A stretch of DNA of 64,000 bases from an uncultured Methylomirabilota bacterium (GCA_963714585.1 CAVQPC010000077.1:3878-67877); one strand, 5' to 3'; positions 7,391 through 61,942 are shown, counted from the stretch's first letter. The notes: generated from the sequence alone by a model not told the origin. Made by a program: numbers and translations.

Positions 7391-7613
7391 GGGCTCCTTT
7401 ACGGAGGACAATTCCCCCGGGGCTGTCCTCCCACTGTTCGGTTTGGCCACTTCGGTTTCGGATGGGTCCTGGGGGTGGGTCCCACCCTCATCCTCACAAT
7501 GTGTGCGGAAGACGCAGATCGCTCCGGCCGACGGTCCGTCGCTACACGGACACCAGCATCGGAACGACGCAACGTCTGGGCGACGATATGAAACAGATTG
7601 CCACCTGTCTCTC

Positions 7614-7629
7614 GGCAATTCCGATACCA
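7614..7629 (-). promoter_or_regulatory. candidate sigma-54 (-24/-12) promoter upstream of the malic-enzyme operon
   Basis: Minus-strand TGGTATCGGAATTGCC fits TGGYAY-N5-TTGC spacing exactly; about 225 nt upstream of the start at 7390. Confidence 0.55.
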
Positions 7630-7879
7630 ATTTCCACCCTGCCTCGGTTTCCAGACATGCTCCGTGGCAATCGGTCAGAACATGAGGCATCCCTGCGAAA
7701 TGCCGATGACTTGCGGCCCAGGGGCGACGGGACACGAAAGCCGATATCGATGGGACGCGTTGGCGAAGCTATGCTCCCTGAGGCAAATTAGCCAAGATCT
7801 GAGCCACAACGTCCCGCTGCCCCGGAACACAGATTGCCGAGCCTGGTGCGGTGGAAAATTGAGATGCGGCTGGCCCTCT

Positions 7880-27711: not shown

Positions 27712-28080
27712 TTAGTATAGGGTCCTAGTCACGGAATGGTAACCGGTTGCCCCGTTGGGAGAGGGGTCGTGGGAGGTCTCGATCTGGAGGGCGCCGGTCC
27801 CGTCCGTGGCGCGGACGCGGAACGTGTGCCGGCCGCCCTGTCGCGGCCAGTCGTAGACCCACTGGACCCAGGTGCGCGAGCTCAAGGGTGGGGTCCGGAG
27901 GACGGCCTCGGCCCACGGGCCGGCGTCCACCTGGACCTCGACCTTTTGGATGCCCCGATCGCCGGCCCAGGCGATCCCCCCGACGGGGACCTTCCCGTCC
28001 TGGACGCGGTCCGTCGCCACGCTGTCGATGATGGACAGGATCTGGGGCCGGGCCTGGCGGCTCCAGTCGCGGTCCCCCAT
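27712..28080 (-). pseudogene. isolated Moco-dimerisation (Ig-like) domain of a sulfite-oxidase-family enzyme
   Basis: GIAWAGDRGIQKVEVQVDAGPWAEAVL...WVQWVYDW...FRVRATDGTG; the catalytic Moco domain is missing. Confidence 0.65.
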
Positions 28081-28092
28081 TACTCCTGTCGA

Positions 28093-28374
28093 GTGGCTAG
28101 GGGACCCCACCAAGATTATTCCGCCAAGGAGCGTGCGGCCTACGACGAGCGGGTCCTGGCCATTCGCACCGTGCTGGAGCTGGTCGAACAGCGACAGAGG
28201 CGCCGCCTCTCCCAGCGGACGCTCGCCGAGCGCATGGGGGTCAGCCAGCCGGTGATCGCCCGGCTGGAGAAACCGCTCGAGCCGGCGTGGCGGCAGCCGT
28301 CCCTGAGCATGCTCTCGCGATATGCCGCCGCCCTCGGTCTGGTCCTTGAGGTGCGTCTCCGCCCCGCGGCCTGA
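28093..28374 (+). CDS. XRE-family HTH protein, antitoxin-like (orphan)
   Basis: RRLSQRTLAERMGVSQPVIARLEK HTH with a short N-terminal ERAAYDE segment typical of HigA-like antitoxins; GTG start uncertain; begins at the junction with the sulfite-oxidase fragment. Confidence 0.6.
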   Translation: MARGPHQDYSAKERAAYDERVLAIRTVLELVEQRQRRRLSQRTLAERMGVSQPVIARLEKPLEPAWRQPSLSMLSRYAAALGLVLEVRLRPAA

Positions 28375-28571
28375 TCCGATCGCTCGGCGCCTGACGTTGC
28401 TCGCGATGACGTCCATCCCTCAGGCGGTCAGTCCACTCAGCGAACAACGCATTCTGCCCGGTCCGACGAGGGGGACTCGGCTCGGAGCAAGCATCAGGAT
28501 ACATGAAAAGCAACGACCCGGATTGCCAGGATCGATGGGGCGAAGCCGCTGCTCTGCAGGATTCCGAGCAC

Positions 28572-28750
28572 TTCCTTTTGTCCCGCTCCCGGTTTCCCGG
28601 ACACCAACCCAGACAGATTCTGCGGCCCCCGCACCACGAGGGCTCTTCGGTAACACTGCCGAAGCGGCCGGGCCCGTCGCTCCGATGTCCCGGTCAACGG
28701 AAATGACTTCCGCAAGTGCGCTACGTAACAAGTTGCTCCAGAAGCAATGT
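28572..28750 (+). repeat. cassette-boundary repeat, copy A
   Basis: Aligns along about 180 bp with copy B and about 110 bp with copy C; core CGGCCGGGCCCGTCGCTCCGATGTCCCGGTCAACGGAAAT. Confidence 0.8.
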
Positions 28751-28797
28751 ACCCCGATATTAAGGTACTGGTCAGTACCTCGTTGTACCCTTTCCCC

Positions 28798-28827
28798 TTG
28801 ACAGCCGCCCGGCTGTCTGAGTAGTGT
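28798..28827 (+). promoter_or_regulatory. candidate sigma-70 promoter with embedded palindrome upstream of the Panacea gene pair
   Basis: TTGACA (28798-28803), 18 nt, TAGTGT; the spacer contains the palindrome ACAGCCG-CC-CGGCTGT (28801-28816). Confidence 0.4.
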
Positions 28828-29125
28828 GTGGGTGGCTCAAGGCCACGGCTGCCCTCATTGAGGTCCCCAGCTAGAGCCAAGAAATACCTCAGCTTCTGGT
28901 TATTTCATGCCGATGGTCAGTGAGGACGGACTGCCCGACGCTACCGACCCTCACTCTTTACTCCAGGAAATTCTTCCCATCTTGGGATAGCGCCAAAATA
29001 GTCGTGCACGTGGTGCCCTCTCCTCCAATCAGCAGTGGTTCCGTCGGAACCCATCACCTGACCTGGAGGTGGTCCTCATGCCGTCCGCCCACACCATTGC
29101 CCGGCCCGCGAGAGAAGTCCAAGTG

Positions 29126-29689
29126 ATGTCCTCAAAGAAGACTGTTGCCCCTATTAGGATCAAGACCGCCACCGAGTATGATCCGGAGAAGGCTGTCCAC
29201 ACTCTCGCATATGTCGCGAAGAAGTTGGGCGGGGCAGCCGACATGTACAAGCTCCTCAAGATTATTTATTTTGCGGATAAGCGTCATCTGGAGCGGTATG
29301 GACGCTTCATCTTCGGCGACACCTACATCGCCATGAACCACGGTCCCGTTCCGAGTGGGGCATACGATGCCATCAAGGACGTACGCGGCGTGGCGGTATG
29401 GTGCAGACGACATCCTCTGGCGAAGAAGGCGCTTCGGGTCCAGGGCACGGAGATAATCCCCAGGGTCGAACCAGATCTAGACTTGTTCAGTGAGTCAGAC
29501 CTGGAGTGCCTGGACGAGACAATCAGGGAGTGTCGGGACCTGAGCTTCCAAGAGCTGAAGAAGAGGAGCCATGGTGACCCCGCCTTTCGGAAGGCAGATG
29601 CCAATGGCGAGATGACGATCGAGAGTATCGCCGCAACCCTGCCCAACGCCGGGGCTGTGCTGGAGTACCTTCATGGATCTTCGGAGTAA
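29126..29689 (+). CDS. Panacea (DUF4065, SocA/GepA-like) domain protein, putative PanA-type antitoxin
   Basis: MYKLLKIIYFADKRHLERYGRFIFGDTYIAMNHGPVPSGAYD is the DUF4065 signature; start could also be 29069. Confidence 0.8.
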   Translation: MSSKKTVAPIRIKTATEYDPEKAVHTLAYVAKKLGGAADMYKLLKIIYFADKRHLERYGRFIFGDTYIAMNHGPVPSGAYDAIKDVRGVAVWCRRHPLAKKALRVQGTEIIPRVEPDLDLFSESDLECLDETIRECRDLSFQELKKRSHGDPAFRKADANGEMTIESIAATLPNAGAVLEYLHGSSE

Positions 29690-29697
29690 TCGCCGGG

Positions 29698-30177
29698 ATG
29701 GCCATCGGCGACTCCTTTCCCCTCGAGAAGCGAAAGGCCTACGTTGAGCGCAACCTCAAGGCGTGGTCGGTCATCTACCTCTACTGCGAGTCCATCTCCC
29801 CGCCGCACGACAAGTTCCTTCTGATCGTCAGCGCGTCTCCATACGTGCTTTACTTCTTCATCAACACTGAGCCATACGAACTCGCCAAGTCGAACCCAAA
29901 GATGAAAGAGACGCAGGTCTCCATCGACGTGAAGGAGCATCCTTTTCTCTCCTACGATTCCTTCATCGACTGCTCGCGGCTGCTCTCCCTCCCGGCCTAC
30001 GAGGTTGAGCGGCAACTCGTCGCCGACGTCGGGAGAGTCAAAGGTGTGATATCGGATGCCATTCAGGCGAAGGTTCTTGAGGCGGTGAGGAAAAACGGGG
30101 TCATGAGCCCACGCAAGAAGAAAATGATCTTGGAACAACTGTTGAGCAAGACGCCTCGGCGGGGAGGCAGGGCCTGA
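29698..30177 (+). CDS. hypothetical 159-aa protein, candidate Panacea-associated toxin
   Basis: Starts 9 nt after the PanA stop with a GGAG upstream; no family recognised by eye. Confidence 0.6.
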   Translation: MAIGDSFPLEKRKAYVERNLKAWSVIYLYCESISPPHDKFLLIVSASPYVLYFFINTEPYELAKSNPKMKETQVSIDVKEHPFLSYDSFIDCSRLLSLPAYEVERQLVADVGRVKGVISDAIQAKVLEAVRKNGVMSPRKKKMILEQLLSKTPRRGGRA

Positions 30178-30224
30178 TTAACTCTCACCAAGGACGATGG
30201 CGGGGTCCTTCCGTCACGCCCCTT

Positions 30225-30408
30225 ATTCCTTCTGTACCGCACCCGGTTTCCTGGACAGCAACTCGGACAGATTCTGCGGCCTTCCGCACCGACGAGGAGG
30301 GGTCTTCCGTGACGCTGGCGAACCGGCCGGGCTCGTCGCTCCGACGTCCCGGTCGACGGAAATAGCTCTCCTAAGTGGGCTGCTTAACAAATTCCTTCAG
30401 AACCAACG
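30225..30408 (+). repeat. cassette-boundary repeat, copy B
   Basis: Same family as copy A; core CGGCCGGGCTCGTCGCTCCGACGTCCCGGTCGACGGAAAT; ends with GCTTAACAAATTCCTTCAGAACCAA. Confidence 0.8.
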
Positions 30409-30437
30409 GGTCCCCCATTACACCCGTTTGACCCGGA

Positions 30438-30806
30438 TCACTTCCAGATCCCCTGCCTCAGCTTGGCCACGACGGCGGCGTGATCCGCCTCCGTGGGAGG
30501 CGGGGTGACGACGTGGAAAGCCACAAGCTTCGTTTCAGCCTTCAGCCCCCGGGCCTCTCCTGCGGGGATGAAGGCGACGGAGCCGGCGCCCACCGGCTCG
30601 TCCCGGTCGCCGGCCACGAGCCGGCCCTCTCCCTCCAGGATGGCGAGGGTGAGATCCACGCCCGGCTGGTGGACCGGGATGAACTGCCCGGGCTCCAGGC
30701 AGACCAGGAGCACCTTCACCCGCTCGTTTCCCGCCAGGGCCACCGGATTGAACCGATCCTTGGCGAAGGCCACGCGATCCCGATAGGCGGACACGAGGAC
30801 GCTCAT
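30438..30806 (-). CDS. cupin-domain protein
   Basis: VLLVCLEPGQFIPVHQPGVDLTLAILEGEGRLVAGD...FIPAGEARGL is a cupin two-motif pattern. Confidence 0.8.
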   Translation of the reverse strand: MSVLVSAYRDRVAFAKDRFNPVALAGNERVKVLLVCLEPGQFIPVHQPGVDLTLAILEGEGRLVAGDRDEPVGAGSVAFIPAGEARGLKAETKLVAFHVVTPPPTEADHAAVVAKLRQGIWK

Positions 30807-31012
30807 GAGTCCCTCCAGTGCGGATGGCCCTGTTGCCTGGCCTGGCCTCCGCCGCTTCCTGCATCATTGCACCTCCAGGACTCCAGGACGCCGACCGAAC
30901 CGAGGAGGACGTTCCGGATGTCGTGGTCCACGAAGGTATATTTGCCAGGCTGGGGGATGACCAGGTCGAACACCACCCCCTCTCCCAGAATTGCTGCCGG
31001 CGCCCCGCACGG
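30805..31012 (-). pseudogene. possible C-terminal scrap of a cupredoxin-type copper protein
   Basis: GVVFDLVIPQPGKYTFVDHDIRNVLLGSVGVL resembles the last strand region of a blue-copper domain; there is no proper start and it follows the TAG of the upstream gene in the same frame. Confidence 0.3.
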
Positions 31013-31231
31013 CTACTCGCCCGAAGTCCCGTCGGGGAAAGCGCGGCCCCACGTATTCCCACGCTTCAGGCACTGCCACTTGGGCGATGTGGCCTCGACT
31101 ACACAGCCACCGAGGATGATTCTTCGGTCAGGATACTCGGCTTTTACGTCCGAGGTCACCGTGCCGTATATGACCTGCGCGATCTCCCGCGACCCGCAGC
31201 GTTGGCAATAGGGGTCTTCCCACGGTTTCAT
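31013..31231 (-). CDS. small zinc-ribbon-like protein (72 aa)
   Basis: Two Cys pairs: CQRCGS ... GGCVV...WQC; its start codon lies inside repeat copy C. Confidence 0.5.
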   Translation of the reverse strand: MKPWEDPYCQRCGSREIAQVIYGTVTSDVKAEYPDRRIILGGCVVEATSPKWQCLKRGNTWGRAFPDGTSGE

Positions 31232-31232
31232 C

Positions 31233-31343
31233 CTGCAGCCCCCTGCACCGCGAGGCCGGTTCTTCCGTGACGCTGGCGAGACGGCCGGACCCGTCGCTCC
31301 GACGTCCCGATCAACGGGAATAGTTTTCGTACGTGCGCTACGT
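31233..31343 (+). repeat. cassette-boundary repeat, copy C (left part replaced by the zinc-ribbon gene)
   Basis: CTGCAGCCCCCTGCACCGCGAGG...CGGCCGGACCCGTCGCTCCGACGTCCCGATCAACGGGAAT aligns with copies A and B. Confidence 0.75.
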
Positions 31344-32496
31344 CCCCCTCGCCCACGCGTCCGCCGGAAACGGCATCAATGGGGGGGAGCGCCGTGCGCT
31401 GCAGCGTTGCGAGACCTTCCCTCACATTGGTCGGGGACCGCACGGCACGCAGCCCCTGGGGCTCACACCAGGGGCCAGCAGGGAGAATGTAGTAATCTCA
31501 AGGCCGTCCCCCATTTTCCCTTCGTCCCTCGCCTCGAGAGTCCACTCAGTCAACAACGCATTACGGGTCCCGCATTACGCGTTATGACGCGAGGTGGGCC
31601 GGCTCGTCAAATAGGGGTATGCGATGGGGCCGCTCGCGTCTCCCCGCTGCGGGGGCGGCAGCCGATCCTCACCAGTGTCGGGCACCTGGCGGTGTTCGAG
31701 ATGACCCCAGACCCCCCGGGCTCTCCCTCACCCGCTCCCACAGTCCGGCCGCGTTCCTCGCCGCCCAGCCCCACCCCGGGATCCCATGGTCGGTGGCGGT
31801 CGCCCAAATTCGCCGAGTGCCCCTCCCGAACCCCTGAGCCAATGCGGCCCCGGCGAAGCGCTCTCCGCACCCTTTGGGCTTGACATCGGTCCCCCGCCTG
31901 TGGGAAGCTTAAACGGGTTGGGCCCGTGCCCTGGCATGCCTCGGCCTCGCGGGCGTCGGGGCCCGACACCGCCCAAGAGAATATTCGGAGTACGTCACCA
32001 TCACCAGTTCCAGGCCATAGGGTCCGCGAACTCTACATCGAGAAGAGTGGCGGTCCTGTGCGGTGCAGGCTTGCTGGGTTCGCCGGCCGCGGCCAGGATG
32101 TGGATGTGACTCTCCTGCCTATCCACCTCGTTGCCGGTGCTCCACTGGGAGTCAGCCGCGTCGTCGCACCCCCGCACTGCCCGCTCCGATCCGCGCCAGC
32201 CCCTTCCAACAGGGCCGGCGAGCCTCCCGGAAAGCAGCTTCGCCTAGTCGCCCCCGGCACCCCGGCGGCGGCACAGTCCCCCGGAGACTGCCTTGGTCCC
32301 CGCCGGGATCCCCGCGTCGCACTTGACTCCACCTTCGACCGCGCGGTATCGGGGATCCAGGCCGAACGTCACGGGCCCGCTTCCCAGCAGGGACGCATAC
32401 CGCGGCCCAGATCACCGTGTCCGAGAAGGGGCGTCATGTTTCCCACGCTCTGCGCCACGTGAGCCCCATGCTGTGGACTGGCTGAGAGCGTCTCCT

Positions 32497-38452: not shown

Positions 38453-38527
38453 TGAACCGCCGTAGGTTCTGATATCGAAGACCGGCCGTCAAGGGGGATT
38501 TCTCAGCGGGAATACGGGACGGAATCC

Positions 38528-39584
38528 GGGACGTTGCCACTTTTGTCAACTCTATGATACCTTCATGCCCCTCATGCCTCGACAACCGCGCCTCGATGCG
38601 CCGGGGGTCCTGCACCATGTAATGGTGCGGGGCCTCGAGCGGCAGCCCATCTTCCGGGATGATGCCGACCGGGCCGACTTCGTCACGCGACTCGCGGCAC
38701 TGGCCGAGAGCGGCGCGCTGTGTGTCCTCGCATGGGCTCTCCTCCCGAATCACGCCCACCTCCTCGTCCGCACCGGCACGCGTGCCCTTCCCCGCAGCAT
38801 GCGAAGCCTTCTCACGGGCTACGCTGGAGCCTTCAACCGGCGGCACCGGCGGGTCGGGCACCTCTTCCAAAACCGGTACAAGTCCATCGTGGTGGAGGAG
38901 GAGCCCTACCTCCTGGAGTTGGTCCGCTACCTCCACCTGAACCCGCTCCGAGCGAAGGTCGTCTCGGATCTCCGTGCCCTCGCCCGCTATCCCTGGACTG
39001 GCCACAGCGCCCTGCTGGGGACCGTCTCCCGCCCCTGGCAGGCCACGGCGCAGGTCCTGGAGCAGTTTGGCCGCCCGCGTGCCCGGGCCCGGCAGGCCTA
39101 CCGAGCCTTCGTGGCGGAAGGGGCCTCCCAGGGTCGGCGGCCGGAACTCCAAGGGGGCGGCCTTTTGCGGAGCACCGGAGGCTGGGCTGCCGTCGCCGCA
39201 TTGCGTCGTGGTCGGGAGGCGTACCTGGGGGATGAACGGATCCTCGGGAGTCCGGAGTTCGTGGAAGAGATCCGGAGGGAAGTGGACAAGGTTTCGTCAC
39301 CACCTACACTACGGCTCACGGGCGAGGACGTCGTGGCCCGGGTCTGCCGCCACGTCGGCATTGCGCCGGAGAGGCTCCAGGGCGGCGGCCGGTCCCCCCA
39401 GATCACGCGTGCCCGAACTGGGATCGCTTACCTCTGGCTCGAGGTCCTGGGTCGCGCCGGTCGGTCCCTCGCGCCGGCCCTCGGAGTTCGGCCCCAGTCG
39501 GTGTACCGGGCCGCGGTGCGGGGCCGCGAGGAGAGCGGTGAGTGGAGGCAGTTGCTTACAAAGCGATGAAAGTGGCAACGTCCC
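38528..39584 (+). mobile_element. 1057-bp element: Y1 (IS200/RAYT-like) transposase gene bounded by perfect 16-bp inverted repeats
   Basis: GGGACGTTGCCACTTT at 38528-38543 and its exact reverse complement at 39569-39584. Confidence 0.7.
38565..39569 (+). CDS. IS200-like / REP-associated tyrosine (Y1) transposase with a C-terminal DnaA-C-like HTH
   Basis: HHVMVRG...WALLPNHAHLLVRT...GHLFQNRYKS HUH/Y1 motifs; C-terminal ITRARTGIAYLWLEVLG. Confidence 0.85.
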   Translation: MPLMPRQPRLDAPGVLHHVMVRGLERQPIFRDDADRADFVTRLAALAESGALCVLAWALLPNHAHLLVRTGTRALPRSMRSLLTGYAGAFNRRHRRVGHLFQNRYKSIVVEEEPYLLELVRYLHLNPLRAKVVSDLRALARYPWTGHSALLGTVSRPWQATAQVLEQFGRPRARARQAYRAFVAEGASQGRRPELQGGGLLRSTGGWAAVAALRRGREAYLGDERILGSPEFVEEIRREVDKVSSPPTLRLTGEDVVARVCRHVGIAPERLQGGGRSPQITRARTGIAYLWLEVLGRAGRSLAPALGVRPQSVYRAAVRGREESGEWRQLLTKR

Positions 39585-39657
39585 CCATGTCGGCACGGGG
39601 CCGCGGGAGAGCGGTGAGTGGAGGCAGTTGGTTACAAAGCGATGAAAGCGGCAACGT
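39520..39657 (+). repeat. tandem duplication (about 77-bp period, 2 copies) of the right end of the Y1 element
   Basis: GGGGCCGCG(AG)GAGAGCGGTGAGTGGAGGCAGTTG(C/G)TTACAAAGCGATGAAAG(T/C)GGCAACGT occurs at 39520-39581 and 39597-39657. Confidence 0.8.
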
Positions 39658-39787
39658 GGTGCGGGCCGCGGTCCAGGCCTTCATCGAGCGCTACAACCAG
39701 GCCTGGCTCGTCGAGAAGAACGGCTTCCGGAGCCCGGCGCAGGCCCGGGCGGCTTGGCTCGCGGCCGCCCTGCCGGTGGCCGCGTGA
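39656..39787 (+). pseudogene. C-terminal scrap of an rve-type (IS481/IS3-like) integrase
   Basis: VVRAAVQAFIERYNQAWLVEKNGFRSPAQARAAW matches the extreme C-terminus of DDE integrase-core transposases; nothing lies upstream. Confidence 0.5.
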
Positions 39788-40120
39788 TCAACAACCTTGT
39801 GTCCAGGGAACCGGGCGCGCTACACCGGCACCAAGAAGCTTTTGAGGTTCCGCTCGTCCCGCAACCCTCTCTGGGCGCCCGCATCCGCTAACCTGGCGCC
39901 GATACCCAGTGCGAACCGCTCCGGGCAGCGGATCCTGGCTTCGCGAAAGACCGGGATTCGACGGCATCATCCATGAGGGTTCGACACCCCTTCCGCAAAC
40001 AGACCCCGGGGGCCGCTTTGCGGAACGGCGGTGGGGGTGATCAACCCTTCCGGCTTGCAGTGGGTCTGGCTGGGGAGAGGCTGGGCCCTGCTTGCGTCGC
40101 ACATCTGCAGAAAATACCGC

Positions 40121-53605: not shown

Positions 53606-53778
53606 GAGGAGGGCGATCGTGACCTGTCGCGGTAGCCGGTGGAGAGACCTTTGCTTGCAGGGGGAGCGAGCGAGTCTCGGCGACCGGGCACGACCGGGAG
53701 CCTGCGGAAAAGGCTGAGGCATCCATATCCGCAATGGCGTCTCCACCAACCGGGTGCATGGAAGAGGGGAGGGAATCC

Positions 53779-54987
53779 ATGAGGGGAATACCGCGTAGAC
53801 ACTTCCTCAAGACAGTTGGGGCATTCGCCGTCGCGGGTGGCGCGCTGGGGCGCGCGGGACGGGCGCTCGCGCAGGAGGATCCGATCCTGGCCGGCCGGCC
53901 GCTCGTCCGATACCCAGAAAAGACAGACCTGATCCTTCTCACCTCGCGGCCCCCGCAGCTCGAGACCCCGATGAAGTACTTCGACCGGGCCATCACGCCG
54001 AACGAAGCGTTCTTCGTCCGCTACCACGTCTTTCCTGTCCCGACCAGCGTGGATCTGGCCACGTGGCGCCTGAAAGTGATCGGCCATGTGGGCAGCCCGC
54101 TGGAACTCTCCATGGACGACCTCAAGACCAAGTTCCCCCGGGCCTCCATCACGGCCGTGACACAGTGCGCGGGCAACAGCCGCGGCCGCTTCGCGCCTCG
54201 GGTCTTGGGGGGGCAGTGGGGCGACGGGGCCATGGGGAACGCCCAGTGGGCCGGCGCGCGGCTCCGGGACATCCTCACCGCGGCCGGGGTCCGGCCGGAG
54301 GCCGCGGAGGTCTCGCTCAACGGCCTGGACCACACCATATTTCCTACCACGCCTGACCTCGTGAAGAGCCTGATGATCGATCGGATCATGGACGATCCAG
54401 ATATCTTGGTGGCCTACGAGATGAATGGTCAGCCCCTCCCCATGCTGAATGGATACCCGGCCCGGCTGATCGTCCCCGGATGGTACGCCACCTACTGGGT
54501 CAAGAACCTGTTCGAGATCAACGTGTTGGACAAGCCCTTCGAAGGCTTCTGGATGAAGCCCGCCTACCGGATCCCGGATAATCCCTGCGGCTGCATCCCG
54601 CCGGGGACGGCGCCGAAGCGCACCGTGCCCATCAACCGGATGACGGTCCGGTCCTTCATCATTGTCCCCGAGGCCGGCGCCAGACTGCCTGCCGGGAGCG
54701 GGACGACGCTGAAAGGCATCGCCTTCGACAGCGGCTACGGCATCCGGGAGGTGGAGATCTCCGACGATGGCGGGGCCACGTGGCGGCGCGCCCAGCTCGG
54801 CCCCGACCTCGGTCGCTACTCCTTCCGCGAGTGGTCCTCGACCTGGCAGCCGCCGCGCGCCGGAGCCTACCGGCTCATGGTGCGCGCCTTCAACACCATC
54901 GGGGAGTCGCAGGACTACGAGCCCTTGTGGAATCCGGCGGGCTACCTGCGCAATGTGATTGAGCACGTGGACGTGCAGGTGGCATAG
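53779..54987 (+). CDS. sulfite dehydrogenase / sulfite-oxidase-family molybdoenzyme (SorA-like), Tat-exported
   Basis: RRHFLK twin-arginine signal, Moco domain (TQCAGNSRG active-site Cys), C-terminal dimerisation domain. Confidence 0.85.
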   Translation: MRGIPRRHFLKTVGAFAVAGGALGRAGRALAQEDPILAGRPLVRYPEKTDLILLTSRPPQLETPMKYFDRAITPNEAFFVRYHVFPVPTSVDLATWRLKVIGHVGSPLELSMDDLKTKFPRASITAVTQCAGNSRGRFAPRVLGGQWGDGAMGNAQWAGARLRDILTAAGVRPEAAEVSLNGLDHTIFPTTPDLVKSLMIDRIMDDPDILVAYEMNGQPLPMLNGYPARLIVPGWYATYWVKNLFEINVLDKPFEGFWMKPAYRIPDNPCGCIPPGTAPKRTVPINRMTVRSFIIVPEAGARLPAGSGTTLKGIAFDSGYGIREVEISDDGGATWRRAQLGPDLGRYSFREWSSTWQPPRAGAYRLMVRAFNTIGESQDYEPLWNPAGYLRNVIEHVDVQVA

Positions 54988-55925: not shown

Positions 55926-56669
55926 ATGCATCTGAGCGAGTCGGATACGCGAGCCAAACTCGTCGACCCGGCCATCCATGCCCGTGGCTGGACGGAAGAC
56001 CTCATCCGCTGCGAAGAGACTGCCGCAACAGTCGACATCATTGACGGGTTCCCCCGGAGGCGTGGTAAAGGCCGGGTGGATTACGTCCTGCGCGTCAAAG
56101 TGAGCCCTGATACGCAGCCGGTCGCGGTTGCGCTCATCGAGGCGAAGGCCGAACACCTGCCCCCTGCCCACGGCCTGGAGCAAGCCAAACTCTACGCCAC
56201 CTGTAAGCGGCTCAACGTACCCTTCGTCTTTTCCAGCAACGGCCATCTTTTCGTCGAGTACGACCGTATCACCGGCATGACCAGCGCTCCCCGCCCGCTG
56301 GCCGAAATGCCGACGCCCGCCGAGTTGCGTTCCCGGTACGAGCAGCGCATGGGCTTTACCCTGGACGCGCCCTTGGCCAAGCCCCTGCTCGCGCGCTATA
56401 CCGGGGGCGAGGCGACGCGCCGCTACTACCAGGATGCCGCGATCCGGGCTGTCCTGGAGAAGCTGGCTCGGGGGGAAAAACGCGCCCTTCTGTTCCTTGC
56501 CACCGGGGCGGGGAAGACGTTCATCGCCGTCCACCTGCTCAAGCGGTTCGCCGATGTGGGCCAGCTCCGGCGGGCGCTGTTCGTCTGCGACCGCGACGAA
56601 CTGCGGAGTCAGGCACTCGGGGCGTACCAGAACCGCATAAGGAGGCGACCCCTGTGGCAAAGAGTGTGA
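55926..56669 (+). pseudogene. truncated restriction-enzyme helicase subunit (HsdR/Res-like): N-terminal nuclease-like domain plus helicase motif I only
   Basis: SESDTRAKLVDPAI...VDYVL...LIEAK nuclease-like domain and ATGAGKT Walker A; homology ends near 56635, where composition changes. Confidence 0.75.
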
Positions 56670-57325
56670 AGATCCCGTGCGTCAATTGTGGGGGCGGCCC
56701 GCGAAATCATCTAGTCCTGAAGGAGCACGAAGAGAAGTGGAGAACCGAAGATGACCAAGGGGGAGGCACCTACCAGATCTGTAAGTGTATGGGCTGCGAA
56801 GCGGTACGATTTCGAGAGGAAGCGTGGGACACAAGCTGCTGGAACTACGACACGCAGAAGATGGAGCCAGAGGTTACCGTATATCCGGAGACCGTTAAGT
56901 CTGAGCGTGAGCCGGTGGACGTTGTGGAGTACCCAGATGCCGTTGCCCGGATCTATCTAGAAACCATTCGAGCTTTCAACGGTGGGGCCATGATTCTCGC
57001 TGGTGGGGGGCTCCGTGCGATAGTTGAGGCAATTTGCCTAGGTCGCAAAGTCTCGGGGAGAAATCTCAAGGAGAAAATTGACGCGCTCGTGGCCAGCGGG
57101 CTACTTGCCAAACCCCAAGCCGAACTGCTGCATGAAGAACGGTACATTGGCAATTCGGCACTGCACGAGATCCTGCCGCCAACGAAGCGCGACGTCGAGG
57201 ACGGCCTGGCCATTGTCGAGGGCCTGCTGAATACGATCTACACCCTGCCAGGCCACGCGGAGCGCCTTCGGCGAAAGCGCCAGAACAAGACACAGCTCCC
57301 CAAGCCATCGCAACGAAAGCCGTAG
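56654..57325 (+). CDS. zinc-ribbon plus DUF4145 domain protein
   Basis: AAGGAGG RBS 8 nt before the GTG; CVNCGG...CKCMGC ribbon; C-terminal LRAIVEAIC...LHEERYIGNSALHE pattern typical of DUF4145. Confidence 0.75.
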   Translation: MAKSVKIPCVNCGGGPRNHLVLKEHEEKWRTEDDQGGGTYQICKCMGCEAVRFREEAWDTSCWNYDTQKMEPEVTVYPETVKSEREPVDVVEYPDAVARIYLETIRAFNGGAMILAGGGLRAIVEAICLGRKVSGRNLKEKIDALVASGLLAKPQAELLHEERYIGNSALHEILPPTKRDVEDGLAIVEGLLNTIYTLPGHAERLRRKRQNKTQLPKPSQRKP

Positions 57326-57549: not shown

Positions 57550-58515
57550 CTAGTGTACCGTTTCCAAAATGGCTTTACAGCGCCCCACCTTTTCCAGGAT
57601 GGTCTCCGCCGACTTCGTCCAGACCAAAGGCTTCGGGTGGGTGTTGTGCACCTGGATGTACTCCTCGATGGCGGCGATGAGGTCGGGGACGCTCTTGAAG
57701 ACCCCCCGCCGAATGCGTTTGGTGGTGAGCTCCCGGAACCACCGCTCGACGAGGTTCAACCACGACGAGCTGGTCGGGGTGAAGTGGAGATGAAAACGCG
57801 GACGCTTGGCCAGCCACTGCTGCACCTTGGGATGTTTGTGCGTCCCATAGTTGTCCACGATCAGGTGCAGATCCAGCCCGGCCGGCGTCGTGCGATCCAG
57901 CTGCTGAAGGAACGCCCGAAACTCTCCGTTCCGATGCCGGGGGTAGCAGGCCCCAAGCACGGTCCCTTCGAGCACGTTCAAGGCCGCAAAGAGGGTCGTG
58001 GTGCCGTTCCGCGTGTCGTCGTGGGTCATCGTCCCACAGCGGCCCTGCTTGATCGGGAGGCCCGGTTGGGTGCGGTCCAGGGCCTGGATCTGGCTCTTCT
58101 CGTCGACGCAGAGGACCAGGGCCTTGTCGGGCGGAGGCAGGTACAGGCCCACCCCATCGGTGAGCTTCTCGGCGAAACGCTTGTCCCGGGAGACCTTGAA
58201 GGGCCGGACCCGATGCGGCTGGAGGCCATGGGCCTGCCAGATGCGGGCCACGGTGGCGTTGCTGACGCCGAACGCCTCCGCCATCGTCCGGGTGCTCCAG
58301 TGGGTCGCGCCCTTGGGCGTGGTCTGGGTGGTCGCCCGCACGATGGCCTGCACGGTGTCTGTCGGGATACTCCGCGGGCGGCCACGCCCGGGGGCATCCT
58401 GCTGCACCGCGGCCAGGCCCCCCGCCTGAAACCGTTTGCGCCACAGGGCCACGGTGGGGCGCGTCGTGCCGAGGCGCTGGGTGATCTGGCTCGGCGGGAC
58501 CCCCTGCGCGGTCAA
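57550..58515 (-). mobile_element. IS630-family DDE transposase, apparently 5'-truncated
   Basis: HTH, then DEKSQIQAL...IVDNYGTHKH...SSWLNLVERWF DDE_3 motifs; the first ~35 residues usual for the family are missing. Confidence 0.9.
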
Positions 58516-58667
58516 GACAACTGCGCCTGCGACAGATTGCGATCGATGCGGAACCGAATGATCTGTTTCGCAAGCTCGTACTCTTCTTCCAGGTCCTCAT
58601 ATGCCTTTCGAAACTCAGGATTCTTCAGTTGAGTATCAAGATACTTGTCGAAGTCGGTCGTCTTCAT
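58512..58667 (-). pseudogene. HigA-like XRE antitoxin truncated after 51 codons at the IS630 junction
   Basis: MKTTDFDKYLDTQLKNPEFRKAYEDLEEEYELAKQIIRFRIDRNLSQAQL then stop; ATGA overlap with the toxin stop; the HTH is cut in helix 2. Confidence 0.6.
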
Positions 58668-59008
58668 ATGTTTCCCCTTGTACCTTCGGCGTGCTGCCTC
58701 ATGAGCAGCGCGGCTCGTTCAAGCTCCCTTCGGTCGAGCTTCATTCCCTTCTTTATGTAGCCTGAAGTCACTACGTACAAATGCTCCTGGTGCCAGAAGT
58801 AGAAGAATCGGCATGCGTCATGACCAAGCATGACCCTAAGCTCAAATAGTCCAGGCCAATCGGACACCTTCTTTGAATGGGGCTCCCTAAGGGAGGGGCC
58901 GAACTCCTGAAGCAGCCGTATCGAACGAGCCGCTTTGGCCTTCAGGCGGTCATGCAAGCCGTCCAGGAATTGGACCGCCGGCGGCAGAAGCTTGACTTTG
59001 TAGCCCAT
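58664..59008 (-). CDS. RelE/ParE-superfamily toxin (HigB / Gp49-like)
   Basis: LFELRVMLGHDACRFFYFWHQEHLYVVTSGYIKKGMKLDRRELERA fits the Gp49/HigB pattern; start at 59008 or 59023. Confidence 0.75.
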   Translation of the reverse strand: MGYKVKLLPPAVQFLDGLHDRLKAKAARSIRLLQEFGPSLREPHSKKVSDWPGLFELRVMLGHDACRFFYFWHQEHLYVVTSGYIKKGMKLDRRELERAALLMRQHAEGTRGNI

Positions 59009-59539
59009 GCAGGAATATACCATGCGTGATATGGCTGTGTCAAGCACGGATTGCCCTCCCCGGAAAGACCGATTCATTTGGCAGTCCGCTGTACGAGAAA
59101 GCCGACGTTGGGTCCAAAGATGGGCATAACACGTATAAGGCCTCCCCGAGTCAAGAGGCGTGGCCGAGCGCGACAAACCCGGAGTGGCTGCCAGAAGAGA
59201 AGAGACGCCGATAAAACAGCCCGACTTGGTTTCTACGATGGGTGCGGCAATGCAGCCTGCACCAAACACGTATCGAGAGTCGCCCGAGGCGCTCTAGAAT
59301 CTTATTAGTGCCCGACCGCCGTCCGAATCAAAAAAGGGGGTCACCTCCAGGGTGCCTCAGTTACTTTTGCGGCTCGGCGCGGGGCAGACCGCATATCGGT
59401 GTTCTGTTGTCGTGCGGCACCAGAAGATCGGGACCCGGGTGTGCGACCAATCAAATCGAGGGACTTGCCCGAACACAGAGAGCACAGAGGACAGTCCAGT
59501 TAAGCGAACAGGTTCCTGCACACCCTGTCCCTTTTTTCA

Positions 59540-60586
59540 TCAGCCGTCTTGATAGAATCGCATCGGGTCGAAAGCCTCCTTGTGCTTGAGCATGAAATAG
59601 AGGGTGCGGCCAAGCTTCTGTGCGATGATGGAGAGGGCCTTGGCCTTGCCGTACTTGGAGACCAGCTTGTGGTGAAGGCGTTGGGCGGGCTCGTTGTCGC
59701 GCAAGAAGGTGACCGCCGCTTCTGAGAAAGCCCACTTGAGATGGACGTTGCCGATCTTACTGTTGCGCGCTCCACTCTTTTTGCCCGCGGACTCGCGTGC
59801 GCACTTGACCAGGCGGCAGTAGGAGATGAAGTTGCCTACTGAGGAGAAGCGTGAAATGTCGTGGACCTCGTAGAGGATCACCAGGGACAGGATCTTGCCG
59901 ATGCCGGGAACGGTGCAGATGAGTCGCAGGGCCAGAGGATCGTGAGCGCGTGCTTGCTGGAGGACCGTCCGCTCGACGCTCAACAGCACTCGGTGCAAAG
60001 CGTCCAGGACGTCGATGTCGGCCTGGATGCTTTTGCTCACCATGGGTTCAGGGAAGTGCTCAGAGAGTTTGGCTCTATTGGTTCGGTAGTTGATGCGTTT
60101 CTGGAAGGCGGCCAGGTTGTACTGGGCGTTGGTGTTCTGGATGTGAGCGAGGAGCTCGCTTTGCTGGTGCATGAGGTACATGCGGCGACGAAGCAGATCA
60201 CGGGTGGAGCGCATGGCCTGAGGGTAGGCGTAGGCCAGGGGCAGCATACCGGCGCGCAGCAGGCCGGCGATCTTCTGGGAGTCAAGTTTGTCGTTCTTGG
60301 TCTTGCCGCCGTGGATCGCCTTCATATACAGGGCGTGACCGAGCACGAATGAGATGGCGTGTTGAGCACACACATCGGCGATCCAGTACCAGGTGAAGAT
60401 GCATTCCACGGCGACCACGATGTCTTCTCGATAGGGGCGTAAAGCTTCTAGAAGATGCTCACCGTCTGTGGGCAGGTTGCGGTGGAGGAGCACGGTACCT
60501 GCAGAGTCGAGGATGCACAGGTACATGCTTCTTGCGTGAAGATCGATGCCGCAATAGAATTGATGCTGTCGGGTGTAGAAGTGCAA
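59540..60586 (-). mobile_element. IS110-family (DEDD) transposase, element a
   Basis: YCGIDLHARSMY...AVECIFTWYW...KTKNDKLDSQKIA N-terminal DEDD domain and Transposase_20 C-domain (VPGIGKILSLVIL...SGARNSKIGNVHLKWAF); GAGAGGAGG RBS before the TTG at 60586. Confidence 0.9.
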
Positions 60587-60661
60587 TCTTGGCCTCCTCT
60601 CAAAATCGTTTAGTTGAGCGACGGTAGCTTTCCTACCGTACCTCCGAGGGGAGGCCTTAAT

Positions 60662-60780
60662 AAGTATCAAATCGTTGGAGCAGTCGCCTTAAGGGGCCGT
60701 CTTGAACCGCGAGTCGCGATCCCGTAAGGAACCTTGGTCTTTGGGCGTGGTCGGCGGCGCTGCTCAACTCTATGTTATGC
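60662..60780 (+). repeat. integron attC-like site 1
   Basis: ATCAAATCGTTGGAGCAGTCGCC ... GGCGCTGCTCAACTCTATGTTATGC; the inner arms pair with bulges and the right end is GTTATGC. Confidence 0.7.
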
Positions 60781-61750
60781 CGCCGTAACTTGACGGCTGA
60801 TGTGGCTGAATGGCGCGTGCTGGAGGTGTTCGCCGAAGTGAAGGGTGCCAAGCTACAGCGTGCGCTAGGGCCGATTATGACTTATTTCGAGCAGTGTCCT
60901 CGACCGCGGATCTCTCCGAGCCAAGCGGCATCACTGCCATTGCGATCTAAGGCCATCCTCCCCACGCGGCAGCGAGAGGCTTCCCACCGTCGGAGCGTAC
61001 TGCGCTCAGTTTCGTGGAGTGGCGAAGTATATTGGACATTGAGCGTCGTCGACGGAATGTGCAGTTCTGCTTGTTAGCAGCAGCTAAGTCACCAAATTTT
61101 AACTCGTTGATCAAGCAAGGCTATACGGTAGGACCGAAATAGAAACTGCGCAGTCGCTTCAGGTCCGGCATTCTGTAGATCTCTTCGAACCAAGACTTCC
61201 ATGCGCTGCGAAGGAGCTTTCGACCGACTCACAGACCCAGGACATAAGGAGATCAGACTTTCGTTCAAACGATTAGCGCATAGCTGACGGGTTTCACCGG
61301 CCGCTGAAGCATGCACAGGAGCTCGGACGACGCTGGTGAGACTATCGATGTAGGCGTACGAGTATGAACGTTCAGGAGATCGAATATTTCCGGTGGATTC
61401 TTCGCCACAATCTTTACCAATCCGATTCGAGGAATGGACACCGCAGTGGTCGCAATTGCCACAGAGATGACGCATGGACTTCCGCCTCACAGGCCACTAG
61501 AGTACCGTTATTCGGGACTAAAGATGCTAAATGAGGAAAACGGACTCGCAGGACGCAACGACATCGGGAGCTACTTACGAAGACCTTGCCAGGTACAACC
61601 TACATCCGACTGTACGCTCTCATGGTTCGTTTAATGACCCCGATGGACGGATATCAATGCGGGGATGAGAATGATCTCTCCGACAAAGCGAGTGAATTCG
61701 AGGTGCTTGTAAGGGTCGCTACAGTGAAAGCTTATTCTGCGACGAGCGCC

Positions 61751-61867
61751 CCATAACAAATCGTTGGAGTTGTCGCCTTAGGTGGTCTTCTGCTTCGACG
61801 GGAATGTCGTCGCCGGGGTTCGCTTCGCGCTGGTGATTCGGCGGCGCAACTCAACTCTATGTTATGT
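61751..61867 (+). repeat. integron attC-like site 2
   Basis: CATAACAAATCGTTGGAGTTGTCGCC ... GGCGGCGCAACTCAACTCTATGTTATGT; CATAAC pairs with GTTATG, and GTTGGAGTTG pairs with CAACTCAAC with one unpaired base. Confidence 0.75.
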
Positions 61868-61942
61868 CCAGCTTGGGGCTGACACTCATGGCCTGATTTC
61901 GGTTGACGGCTTGATATTGTAGCGATAGGAGAGCGTAGGAAA

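Follow-up and report, generated by a model that had tools for sequence, protein, structure and literature searches.

Repeats in an accessory-gene island of an uncultured Methylomirabilota bacterium: probable remnants of an IS3-family left end beside the terminal repeat of a Y1 transposase element

Results

Three copies of a repeat separate unrelated gene sets

The 64,000-nt stretch of DNA analyzed here, referred to as the window, comes from an uncultured Methylomirabilota bacterium (GCA_963714585.1, CAVQPC010000077.1:3878-67877), and positions are counted from its first letter. Between 28 and 31 kb, where the G+C content is 57–64% compared with about 70% on either side, a short repeat occurs in three copies, A, B and C, within an island of accessory genes. 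The gene order is a truncated HTH_3 gene, copy A, a SocA/Panacea gene and its partner on the plus strand, copy B, a minus-strand set made up of a cupin gene, a gene fragment and a 72-aa gene, and copy C. An earlier reading of the sequence (the original prediction) had proposed an unclassified repeat family at gene-set boundaries, and both the family and its placement between unrelated gene sets were borne out.

A repeat search of the window returned a family of three members, all on one strand (28633–28747, 30292–30406 and 31250–31364), and an additional segment of copies A and B (28572–28627 versus 30226–30281, 88% identity). The predicted hairpin core and tail were also recovered: the core CCGGGCYCGTCGCTCCGAYGTCCCGG is present three times in the 64-kb window (28668, 30327 and 31285) and never in 100 shuffles, the TC(G/A)ACGG(A/G)AAT tail comes directly after it, and core identity is 78.6% for A and B, 79.8% for A and C and 82.1% for B and C. 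The extents first given for the copies were 28572–28750, 30225–30408 and 31233–31343; the family boundaries were redrawn by comparison with copies outside the window, and the extra bases, about 8 nt on the left and about 24 nt on the right, proved private to A and B.

With these boundaries, copy A (28579–28725, plus strand) is a full-length form of 147 nt that begins with a terminal inverted repeat of insertion sequence (IS) type IS3 (28579–28604), carries the central hairpin at 28668–28693 and ends in ...GTGCGCTACG. Copy B (30233–30384, plus strand), also full-length, has 152 nt, with the IS3-type inverted repeat at 30233–30258 and the hairpin at 30327–30352. Copy C (about 31230–31342, plus strand) is truncated on the left and lacks the IS inverted repeat; two changes break the stem of its hairpin (31285–31310), and on its left it reaches into the start codon region of the 72-aa gene (31013–31231, minus strand). 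Copies A and B run on into TAACAA(G/A)TT. The tail of copy A, TAACAAGTTGCTCCAGAAGCAATG (28726–28750, plus strand, about 24 nt), is common to copy B only and lies outside the wider family; in copy B the tail TAACAAATTCCTTCAGAACCAACGG is followed by the 12-nt box described below, GTCCCCCATTAC, at 30410–30421 (tail and box together 30385–30421, plus strand).

Relatives on other contigs point to decay from a master sequence

A scan with exact patterns located the core on eight contigs from JGI metagenomes (L001–L008). L003 is a partial duplicate of L007, and L002 is almost the same as L006; seven contigs are distinct. A profile search revealed three copies within 1.3 kb on L005 (L005a, L005b and L005c). 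About ten further copies thus lie outside the window, and the family totals 12. No copy was found in 185,579 GTDB species, represented by one genome each and searched with two patterns, or in IMG/VR, searched with one pattern. The Panacea locus of the window is reproduced by two short Logan contigs, one of which, L009, stops precisely within cores A and B, the way assemblies stop at repeats.

The aligned copies share a constant right end, ...AAGTGCGCTACG, while their left ends are ragged. Five copies have the full length of 147–152 nt (A, B, L007, L005a and L005b); in the others (C, L001, L002/L006, L004, L008 and L005c) the junction with unrelated DNA falls at differing internal positions. 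Consequently, the IS inverted repeat is present in 5/12 copies and missing in 7/12. The window copies are 84–87% identical to the near-consensus copies L007, L005a and L008, versus 79–82% among themselves, and this star-like pattern argues for a repeat family decaying from a master sequence and not for local tandem duplication. In size, copy number and independent divergence, the short non-coding unit falls in the range of miniature inverted-repeat transposable elements (MITEs; 70–300 bp). Genes near the copies on the metagenome contigs encode PIN, MqsA-like, RhuM, YhcG nuclease, Macro and DUF499 proteins, a neighborhood typical of toxin-antitoxin and defense islands.

Comparison with L002/L006 also bears on the history of the island. 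Relative to these contigs, 28525–28577 and 31404–31515 are halves of one continuous sequence, so that the 2.8-kb block from A to C, which contains A, the Panacea pair, B, the cupin set and C, is an insertion with respect to them. On its left side the block joins the flanking DNA precisely at the tip of the IS repeat in copy A. An imperfect direct duplication of about 24 nt is present at its ends: the left copy, CTGCAGGATTCCGAGCACTTCCTT (28554–28577, plus strand), is homologous to the uninterrupted stretch in L002/L006, and the right copy, CTGCAGCGTTGCGAGACCTTCCCT (31399–31422, plus strand), is identical to it at 18/24 positions.

The left end of the repeat is an IS3-family terminal inverted repeat

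Every long copy (A, B, L007, L005a and L005b) begins with the 26-mer TGTANCGCNCCCGGTTTCCTGGACAC, which also occurs at L005 4350. When the repeat was compared sensitively with the remaining sequence of the window, 39800–39824 on the opposite strand emerged as a match to the leading 25 nt of copy B (22/25). This site belongs to an IS3-family remnant (39660–39824, plus strand) composed of the C-terminal end of a transposase gene (to 39787) and a right terminal inverted repeat at 39799–39824 (minus strand, TGTAGCGCGCCCGGTTCCCTGGACAC). There the 26-mer (39824, minus strand) sits 14 nt past the stop codon of the transposase remnant, and the same 14-nt spacing after the stop was seen on the independent contigs L012–L015 and L016. 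Homologues of the transposase remnant have rve/rve_3 domains and are named “transposase InsO family” by their sources. Counted by hand, the left 26 nt agree at 19–24 of 26 positions with the right ends located behind rve_3/InsO transposase remnants in three independent contexts. This repeated placement after the stop codon of an rve_3/InsO transposase identifies the left 26 nt of the full-length repeat, on sequence grounds, as the terminal inverted repeat of an IS3-family element. On its 5′ side the remnant at 39660–39824 is cut exactly at a terminal half-box, with GGCAACGT passing directly into GGTGCGG at 39657.

A comparison with a better known element gave a similar picture. The sequence TGAACCGCCCCGGGAATCCTGGAGAC, which we take to be the start of E. 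coli IS629-type elements, has perfect (100%) matches in E. coli genomes, where it immediately precedes an annotated IS3 family transposase and lies at the break of a disrupted host gene, and it is identical to the left end of L007 at 20/26 positions (hand count). In the repeat, the TG tip is outermost and the body points inward, and the body is unlike the sequence beside the right-hand repeat of the IS. This orientation, together with the difference from the right-hand side, suggests that the body should be the left-hand interior of the IS, so that the 120 nt after the inverted repeat would be IS-interior sequence.

The adjoining box is the terminal repeat of a Y1 transposase element

In most copies of the repeat, the GCTACG at the right end is followed by TCCC(C/G)(C/G)AT.AC. 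This 12-nt box occurs as the exact 12-mer GTCCCCCATTAC at 28072 (28072–28083, plus strand) and 30410, and near copies are found at 31506 and 31567. The former of these is the degenerate box GTCCCCCATTTT (31506–31517, plus strand). On L002–L008 the box is present many times, nearly always co-oriented with the big repeat. The second motif of the original prediction, at 28431 and 31540, occurs exactly twice, with none expected, and turned out to be a variant of the box together with a common 5′ flank, ...(G/T)CAACAACG(TCCCC)CATTAC. Its left copy, GTCCACTCAGCGAACAACGCATT (28431–28453, plus strand), reads as a box variant with its 5′ flank, ...TCAACAACG...CATTAC; the right copy at 31540–31562 is followed by the box GTCCCGCATTAC at 31567–31578 (31540–31578 in all, plus strand). 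The island (28.07–31.58 kb) has boxes at both bounds and at least six box-type motifs, compared with only two in the other 60 kb of the window.

Those two flank an intact gene for a Y1 HUH transposase with a DnaA_C-like helix-turn-helix domain, of the TIRYT type (RAYT subclass 2.1), at 38565–39569 on the plus strand. The HUH motif is NHAHLL, and the catalytic Tyr lies in FQNRYKS. The protein matched Y1_Tnp (E=5e-7) and Bac_DnaA_C (E=5.5e-5), and scored 62 bits with the NCBIfam model REP_Tyr_transpos, below its cut-off of 80 bits; by these matches it appears related to the transposases associated with repetitive extragenic palindromes (REPs). The gene lies between inverted copies of AAAGTGGCAACGTCCC(C/G)(C/G)AT, namely an upstream terminal inverted repeat on the minus strand (AAAGTGGCAACGTCCCGGATTCCGTCCCG, 38517–38545) and a downstream one on the plus strand (AAGTGGCAACGTCCCCCATGTC, 39570–39591). 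A TIRYT gene with Y1_Tnp and Bac_DnaA_C domains, accompanied by its terminal inverted repeats, is called a TIRtron (Di Nocera et al. 2013, PMC3733652; Quentin et al. 2018, PMC6006769), and the terminal repeats are described as able to form moderately abundant families of singles, dimers or clusters. The window sequence reads as a complete TIRtron at 38510–39660, with an inverted tandem box upstream and a single box downstream. The last ~50 nt of the TIRYT gene and a half-box are duplicated at 39596–39657.

The association of box and gene was found again elsewhere. Protein searches yielded more than 7,600 close TIRYT homologues, and the closest named ones, which hint at the origin of the window without proving it, come from metagenome-assembled genomes (MAGs) labeled “candidate division NC10” or “Methylomirabilota”. 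Homologues that are 82% and 76% identical to the window protein (L018/L019 and L022) have the box AAAGTGGCAACGTCCCCCA right behind the stop codon, plus one or two inverted copies 40–90 nt upstream; a 74% identical homologue (L023/L025) has the box after the stop only. L007 encodes a 93-aa internally deleted TIRYT derivative, with inverted boxes on its flanks twice and an N-terminus 50% identical to that of the window protein. Judged by this recurrent placement, the box is the terminal repeat of the Y1 (TIRYT) element. In three independent TIRYT loci with 10-kb flanks, boxes were present and neither the big repeat nor the IS3 repeat was found, which argues that the big repeat is not a component of the TIRtron.

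Several other arrangements of the box were noted. On contigs of NC10-labeled MAGs (L023 691–1977 and L024 656–1942), a group II intron reverse transcriptase gene (RVT_1 and GIIM) lies immediately upstream of the TIRYT gene, at the place expected for the inverted box. L007 has a repeat of about 60 nt, GGCTCCGAGAGGGGTKGCGCGGTTCGAAWAGCAAATTATCAAGGCCYGACCCCCATTAC, at 452–524, 7415–7475 and 7612–7685, each copy ending in a box, and a 62-nt solo copy of the upstream region of the mini-TIRtron at 7476–7537, inserted directly after a box. In the window, copy C is followed (31343–31398) by a box remnant, ACGTCCCCC, and, 35 nt further on, by an inverted G-rich box-like sequence, CAATGGGGGGGAGCG; the pair may be a head-to-head box dimer. 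The sequence between them shows a weak likeness to the IS3 right repeat (GTCCGCCGGAAACGG).

Gene truncations and homology breaks coincide with box edges

Around the box, conservation extends for about 20 nt on the 5′ side and falls to zero immediately past TTAC. The same edge was observed at a series of junctions. The DUF3553 gene beside the repeat is intact on L007 and is cut on L005 (3293) directly after CATTAC; an IS3 transposase gene is cut directly after ...CCCTATTAC on L011; the homology between L006 and L008 breaks directly after CATTAC; and L002 and L006 differ by a 178-nt indel whose bounds are CAACGTCCCC. In the window, the minus-strand open reading frame (ORF) at 27712–28080 contains only the C-terminal dimerization (Mo-co-dimer) domain of a sulfite-oxidase-like protein and aligns to residues 326–393 of a full-length paralogue at 53734–54987. 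This fragment starts inside the box at 28072–28083, at the ATG of GTAATGGGGGAC. Thus, the boxes and not the big repeats mark the exact junctions at which genes are truncated. A simple insertion into the Mo-co-dimer gene, which would put its other half beyond the island, was rejected, as the sequence at 31.6–32.3 kb contains nothing recognizable.

The box also touches gene starts in other ways. Its reverse complement, GTA-ATG-GGG-GAC, gives a start codon to 5′-truncated ORFs, the “MGD...” frame in the window (28078–28080) and a PIN-like fragment on L008; elsewhere on L008 a box lies 5 nt upstream of the start of a gene that is DUF2442-like by eye, in the manner of a G-rich ribosome-binding site (the L008 boxes concerned are 1049–1060 and 481–492). 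Immediately after the box comes a non-coding module of 50 nt (CCCCCATTACTCCTGTCGAGTGGCTAGGGGACCCCACCAAG...) whose copies at 28073–28122 and L005 1468–1517 are 98% identical, compared with about 85% for the big repeats from the same sources. Its minus strand reads ...ACAGGAGTAATGGGGGAC, which places an AGGAG resembling a ribosome-binding site beside the ATG of the box.

As established for IS608, cleavage of single-stranded DNA by Y1 transposases takes place immediately 3′ of a short target, TTAC being one example. That the box ends sharply at TTAC is compatible with cutting of this kind, without proving it.

The repeats lack the features of attC sites, structured RNAs and genes

The original prediction held that the repeats are not canonical attC sites, and three approaches agreed with it. 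No complementary R″/R′ pair (RYYYAAC/GTTRRRY, 50–150 nt apart) was found at the repeats in 28.0–31.7 kb by a strict pair scan that also missed the degenerate attC sites of the window itself; the sole palindromic pair, seen on both strands, lies inside coding sequence at 29641–29749. There was no end-to-end fold, the ends being unpaired on both strands, for the tails of A and B (28718–28796 and 30372–30440) or the second motif (31536–31596), whereas a control attC (61750–61875, minus strand) folded end to end with CATAACA paired to TGTTATG. Finally, a covariance model built from the three attC sites of the window (60661–60792, 61750–61875 and 62576–62705) scored 113–129 bits on its own sites and at best 7.4 bits (E=7.9) in the repeats, which is noise level. 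The attC reading of the repeats was therefore rejected. The TAACAA ends noted in the original prediction do exist in A and B, but because these tails do not fold like attC, their likeness to the sites at 60–62 kb is superficial. No tyrosine recombinase was present among the approximately 45 window ORFs scanned against Pfam, which are part of the window ORFs of a contig that continues past the window.

The attC array itself consists of the three attC-like sites used for the model, one family (CATAACAAATCGTTGGAG...CTCAACTCTATGTTATG) in a low-G+C stretch (51–58%), with an isochorismatase-family cassette gene at 61943–62497. No integron integrase was found near it among the scanned ORFs. The first site is cut at its left end, where an IS110-family transposase gene is situated (59540–60670, minus strand), and a second IS110-family gene is located at 62964–63917. 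Upstream of the array lies mobile and defense debris: an N-terminal fragment of a type I restriction HsdR gene (55926–56669), a DUF4145 gene (56654–57325), a DDE_3 transposase gene (57550–58515, minus strand) and a Gp49/HigB-like toxin gene (58664–59269, minus strand).

A conserved leader or terminator RNA, also offered in the original prediction, found no support. Rfam 15 yielded no match at the gathering score anywhere in the window, and for 27900–31900 there was none even at E≤1. RNAalifold showed compensatory changes at 0/18 predicted pairs on the plus strand and 0/14 on the minus strand, with an unfavorable covariation term, in a test whose power is low with 11 similar sequences. Substitutions in C, L002, L004, L005b and L005c break pairs of the central hairpin and are not compensated. 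The folding z-scores, −0.08 to −1.94 relative to shuffles, all lie within about two standard deviations. A structured RNA was rejected on these results. A protein-coding repeat was rejected in view of one-base indels between copies and of variable sites that are not third codon positions; the open frames in the repeats are explicable by high G+C. We considered a 3′ fragment of a group II intron (domain V/VI) on account of the constant 3′ end and ragged 5′ end, and rejected it by inspection: the hairpin has no AGC triad, GNRA loop or 34-nt geometry, and there was no Rfam intron match. A simple promoter scan found no sigma-70-like promoter in or near the repeats. A promoter-like site below the scan threshold, TTGACA and TAGTGT separated by 17 nt (28798–28826), lies about 240 nt upstream of the Panacea gene, which suggests that the Panacea pair probably has a promoter of its own and does not depend on copy A.

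Discussion

Origin of the repeats

We consider it probable that the repeats are decaying, non-coding remnants of the left end of an IS3-family element, with a fixed inner end against a TIRYT box, in a box-rich hotspot for accessory modules. Each repeat would represent about the first 150 bp of such an element, that is, the left terminal inverted repeat and subterminal sequence, in a decayed and non-autonomous state. The fixed inner end, ...GTGCGCTACG, adjoins in most copies the 12-nt box (G)TCCCCCATTAC of an unrelated second mobile element, the TIRtron, in which the TIRYT gene lies between inverted boxes and of which the intact example in the window is 7 kb away. The repeats would not themselves serve as recombination sites or RNAs and would be scars, possibly passengers, in a hotspot where toxin-antitoxin and other accessory modules and gene fragments appear to have been joined together. 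The unit may have multiplied through an IS3 transposase supplied in trans, through events on single strands that TIRYT mediates at the neighboring box, or through ordinary recombination. Later deletions may account for the ragged left ends.

Several results weigh against this interpretation. No full-length parent IS3 element was recovered, the relatives being transposase fragments of 73–192 aa. A second terminal inverted repeat was not significant: the best match at the right end is 7 nt long (GTAGCGC, p ~0.08 against shuffles). The check for target-site duplications, suggested in the original prediction, found no exact flanking direct repeat of at least 4 nt at the five long copies, allowing ±3 nt at the boundaries. 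With no target duplication and an inverted match of only 7 nt, classical DDE transposition of the 150-nt unit is not demonstrated. In addition, the hairpin region is about 90% conserved, and conservation of the core above the expectation for pure junk leaves room for a function that may involve protein binding or single-stranded DNA. Lastly, since 7/12 copies lack the IS repeat, the conserved core of about 95 nt could be an independent repeat to which an IS end was attached later.

The original prediction had named a MITE, a new cassette recombination site and a conserved RNA as possible identities, and the first came nearest. The IS3 terminal repeat and the star-like divergence speak for it; a classical two-ended MITE was rejected on the second inverted repeat and the target duplications, and for the same reasons “IS-end remnant” or “non-autonomous repeat” fits better than “MITE”.

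Alternative explanations

The repeat might instead be a dedicated non-autonomous TIRYT unit, comparable to REP/REPIN or PATE elements, in which the central hairpin and the adjoining box would be recognized on single-stranded DNA. Movement by peel-and-paste or one-ended HUH events would leave one constant end, one variable end and no target duplications. The lack of target duplications and of significant terminal inverted repeats, as in IS200/IS605, suits this explanation, as does the right end, which adjoins a box or, as AAGTGCGCTACG, mimics the left half of one (the terminal repeat of TIRYT being AAGTGGCAACG); another unit resembling the box, CGTCCCGGTCAA, overlaps the hairpin in its 3′ arm. 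Within arrays, boxes and repeats point the same way, as expected of strand-specific transposition of single-stranded DNA, and an intact TIRYT gene is present in the window. However, the left 26 nt clearly come from a DDE element of the IS3 family, the three independent TIRYT loci with their 10-kb flanks have boxes and no big repeat, the mutations in the hairpin are uncompensated, and A and B have no box directly at the right end. We therefore regard a dedicated TIRYT unit as unlikely. Less likely again is a minus-strand cis-acting expression module, meaning a portable promoter, 5′ leader or small RNA that serves the gene immediately downstream, to which we give little credence. A minus-strand gene does come right after several copies, namely the 72-aa gene after C (31231) and the DUF3553 gene after L007 and L005b, or else a minus-strand ORF (HsdS-like after L001; small and antitoxin-like after L002, L006 and L004), and repeat-derived sequence contains the start codon region of the gene that follows copy C. 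Yet in each copy the downstream gene lies at another distance and has another junction with the repeat, several of the downstream “genes” are 5′-truncated fragments, and A and B have no credible minus-strand gene downstream. The absence of any Rfam match even at E≤1, of compensatory pairs on either strand and of a sigma-70-like promoter in the scan, together with the unfavorable covariation term and the unremarkable folding z-scores (−0.1 to −1.9), also speaks against an expression module.

A new attC-like recombination site for an unknown recombinase, with the repeats delimiting mobile gene cassettes, is the most improbable of the explanations considered, and we would be greatly surprised if it held. 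It would account for copies between unrelated sets of small accessory genes in a region with lower G+C than its flanks, and both the TAACAA continuation of A and B and the genuine attC array at 60.6–62.7 kb in the same window invite it. The left boundary, however, varies from copy to copy, unlike a fixed crossover point, and the exact junctions fall at the 12-nt box and not in the repeat; nor do the repeats, unlike the control attC, have a paired R″/R′ or an end-to-end hairpin, the window attC model stayed at noise (7.4 bits, E=7.9), and a tyrosine recombinase was absent from the part of the window ORFs scanned against Pfam. Hence the cassette-site option of the original prediction fails for the 110–180 bp repeat with its ragged left end, although it may fit the 12-nt box GTCCCCCATTAC.

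The box as a candidate joining site

It is conceivable, though we hold the idea only tentatively and think it rather doubtful, that the box (G)TCCCCCATTAC, and not the big repeat, is a site-specific breakage-and-joining site of TIRYT, cut just 3′ of TTAC, by which co-oriented accessory arrays are built. If so, TIRYT would assemble co-oriented toxin-antitoxin, defense and other accessory modules in a lineage with a very abundant transposase family; genes would be truncated in the process, and sometimes a start codon (GTA-ATG-GGG-GAC) or a G-rich ribosome-binding site would be donated. Such a system would resemble an integron-like cassette system run by an HUH enzyme, and the IS3-end repeats would be passengers carried by the boxes or cut at them.

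TIRYT/RAYT subclass 2.1 transposases are very widespread, yet to our knowledge none has an established activity, substrate DNA or site of cleavage. The loci assembled in this work offer a concrete candidate substrate, the 12-nt box, which is inverted around the gene and has a sharp 3′ edge at TTAC. They also include several natural “before and after” junctions at which genes end exactly at the edge of a box, and this is a more interesting lead than the repeats. The value of the repeats themselves is mostly corrective: a repeat family near a real attC array invites an integron-like reading, but these repeats are probably IS debris. Annotating them as such averts false calls of a “novel attC” or “novel ncRNA” in metagenome-derived genomes.

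Comparison with known systems

Like the sites of integrons and of clusters of attC sites lacking integrases (CALIN), the repeats lie between small, unrelated and often promoterless accessory genes, with a genuine attC array in the same window; unlike those sites, they have no R″/R′ cores, no bulged end-to-end hairpin and no fixed crossover point. Their 5′-TG left terminus of 26 nt and their form as a non-coding multicopy unit of about 150 nt are those of IS3-family (IS51/IS629-like) ends and of solo ends or MITE derivatives. They differ in that the repeat has no transposase, no convincing second inverted repeat and no target duplication of 3–5 bp, in the loss of the inverted repeat from over half of the copies, and in an inner end fixed against a foreign repeat.

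The boxes share with REPs and bacterial interspersed mosaic elements (including REP-targeting IS and the REPIN/RAYT system) the link between short repeats and a Y1 HUH transposase, as well as the company of IS fragments at points of rearrangement. In contrast to those systems, the window boxes lack the palindromic hairpin form of REPs, and doublets of the REPIN type were not observed; known cases of REP-targeting IS place the tip of the IS against the REP, whereas here the inner side of the IS fragment adjoins the box. With respect to TIRtrons, the box as read on the minus strand (GGGGGACG/GGGGACGT) agrees with the GGGGWSAS motif of the literature at no more than 6/8 positions, and the window boxes stand at exact gene-truncation points and are co-oriented over kilobases, two features that do not appear in the available text of PMC3733652 and PMC6006769. 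In its main plan, however, the locus is like a TIRtron, with a gene of the Y1 and DnaA_C-like class between inverted G-rich boxes and with extra intergenic boxes that occur singly, in tandem and in clusters.

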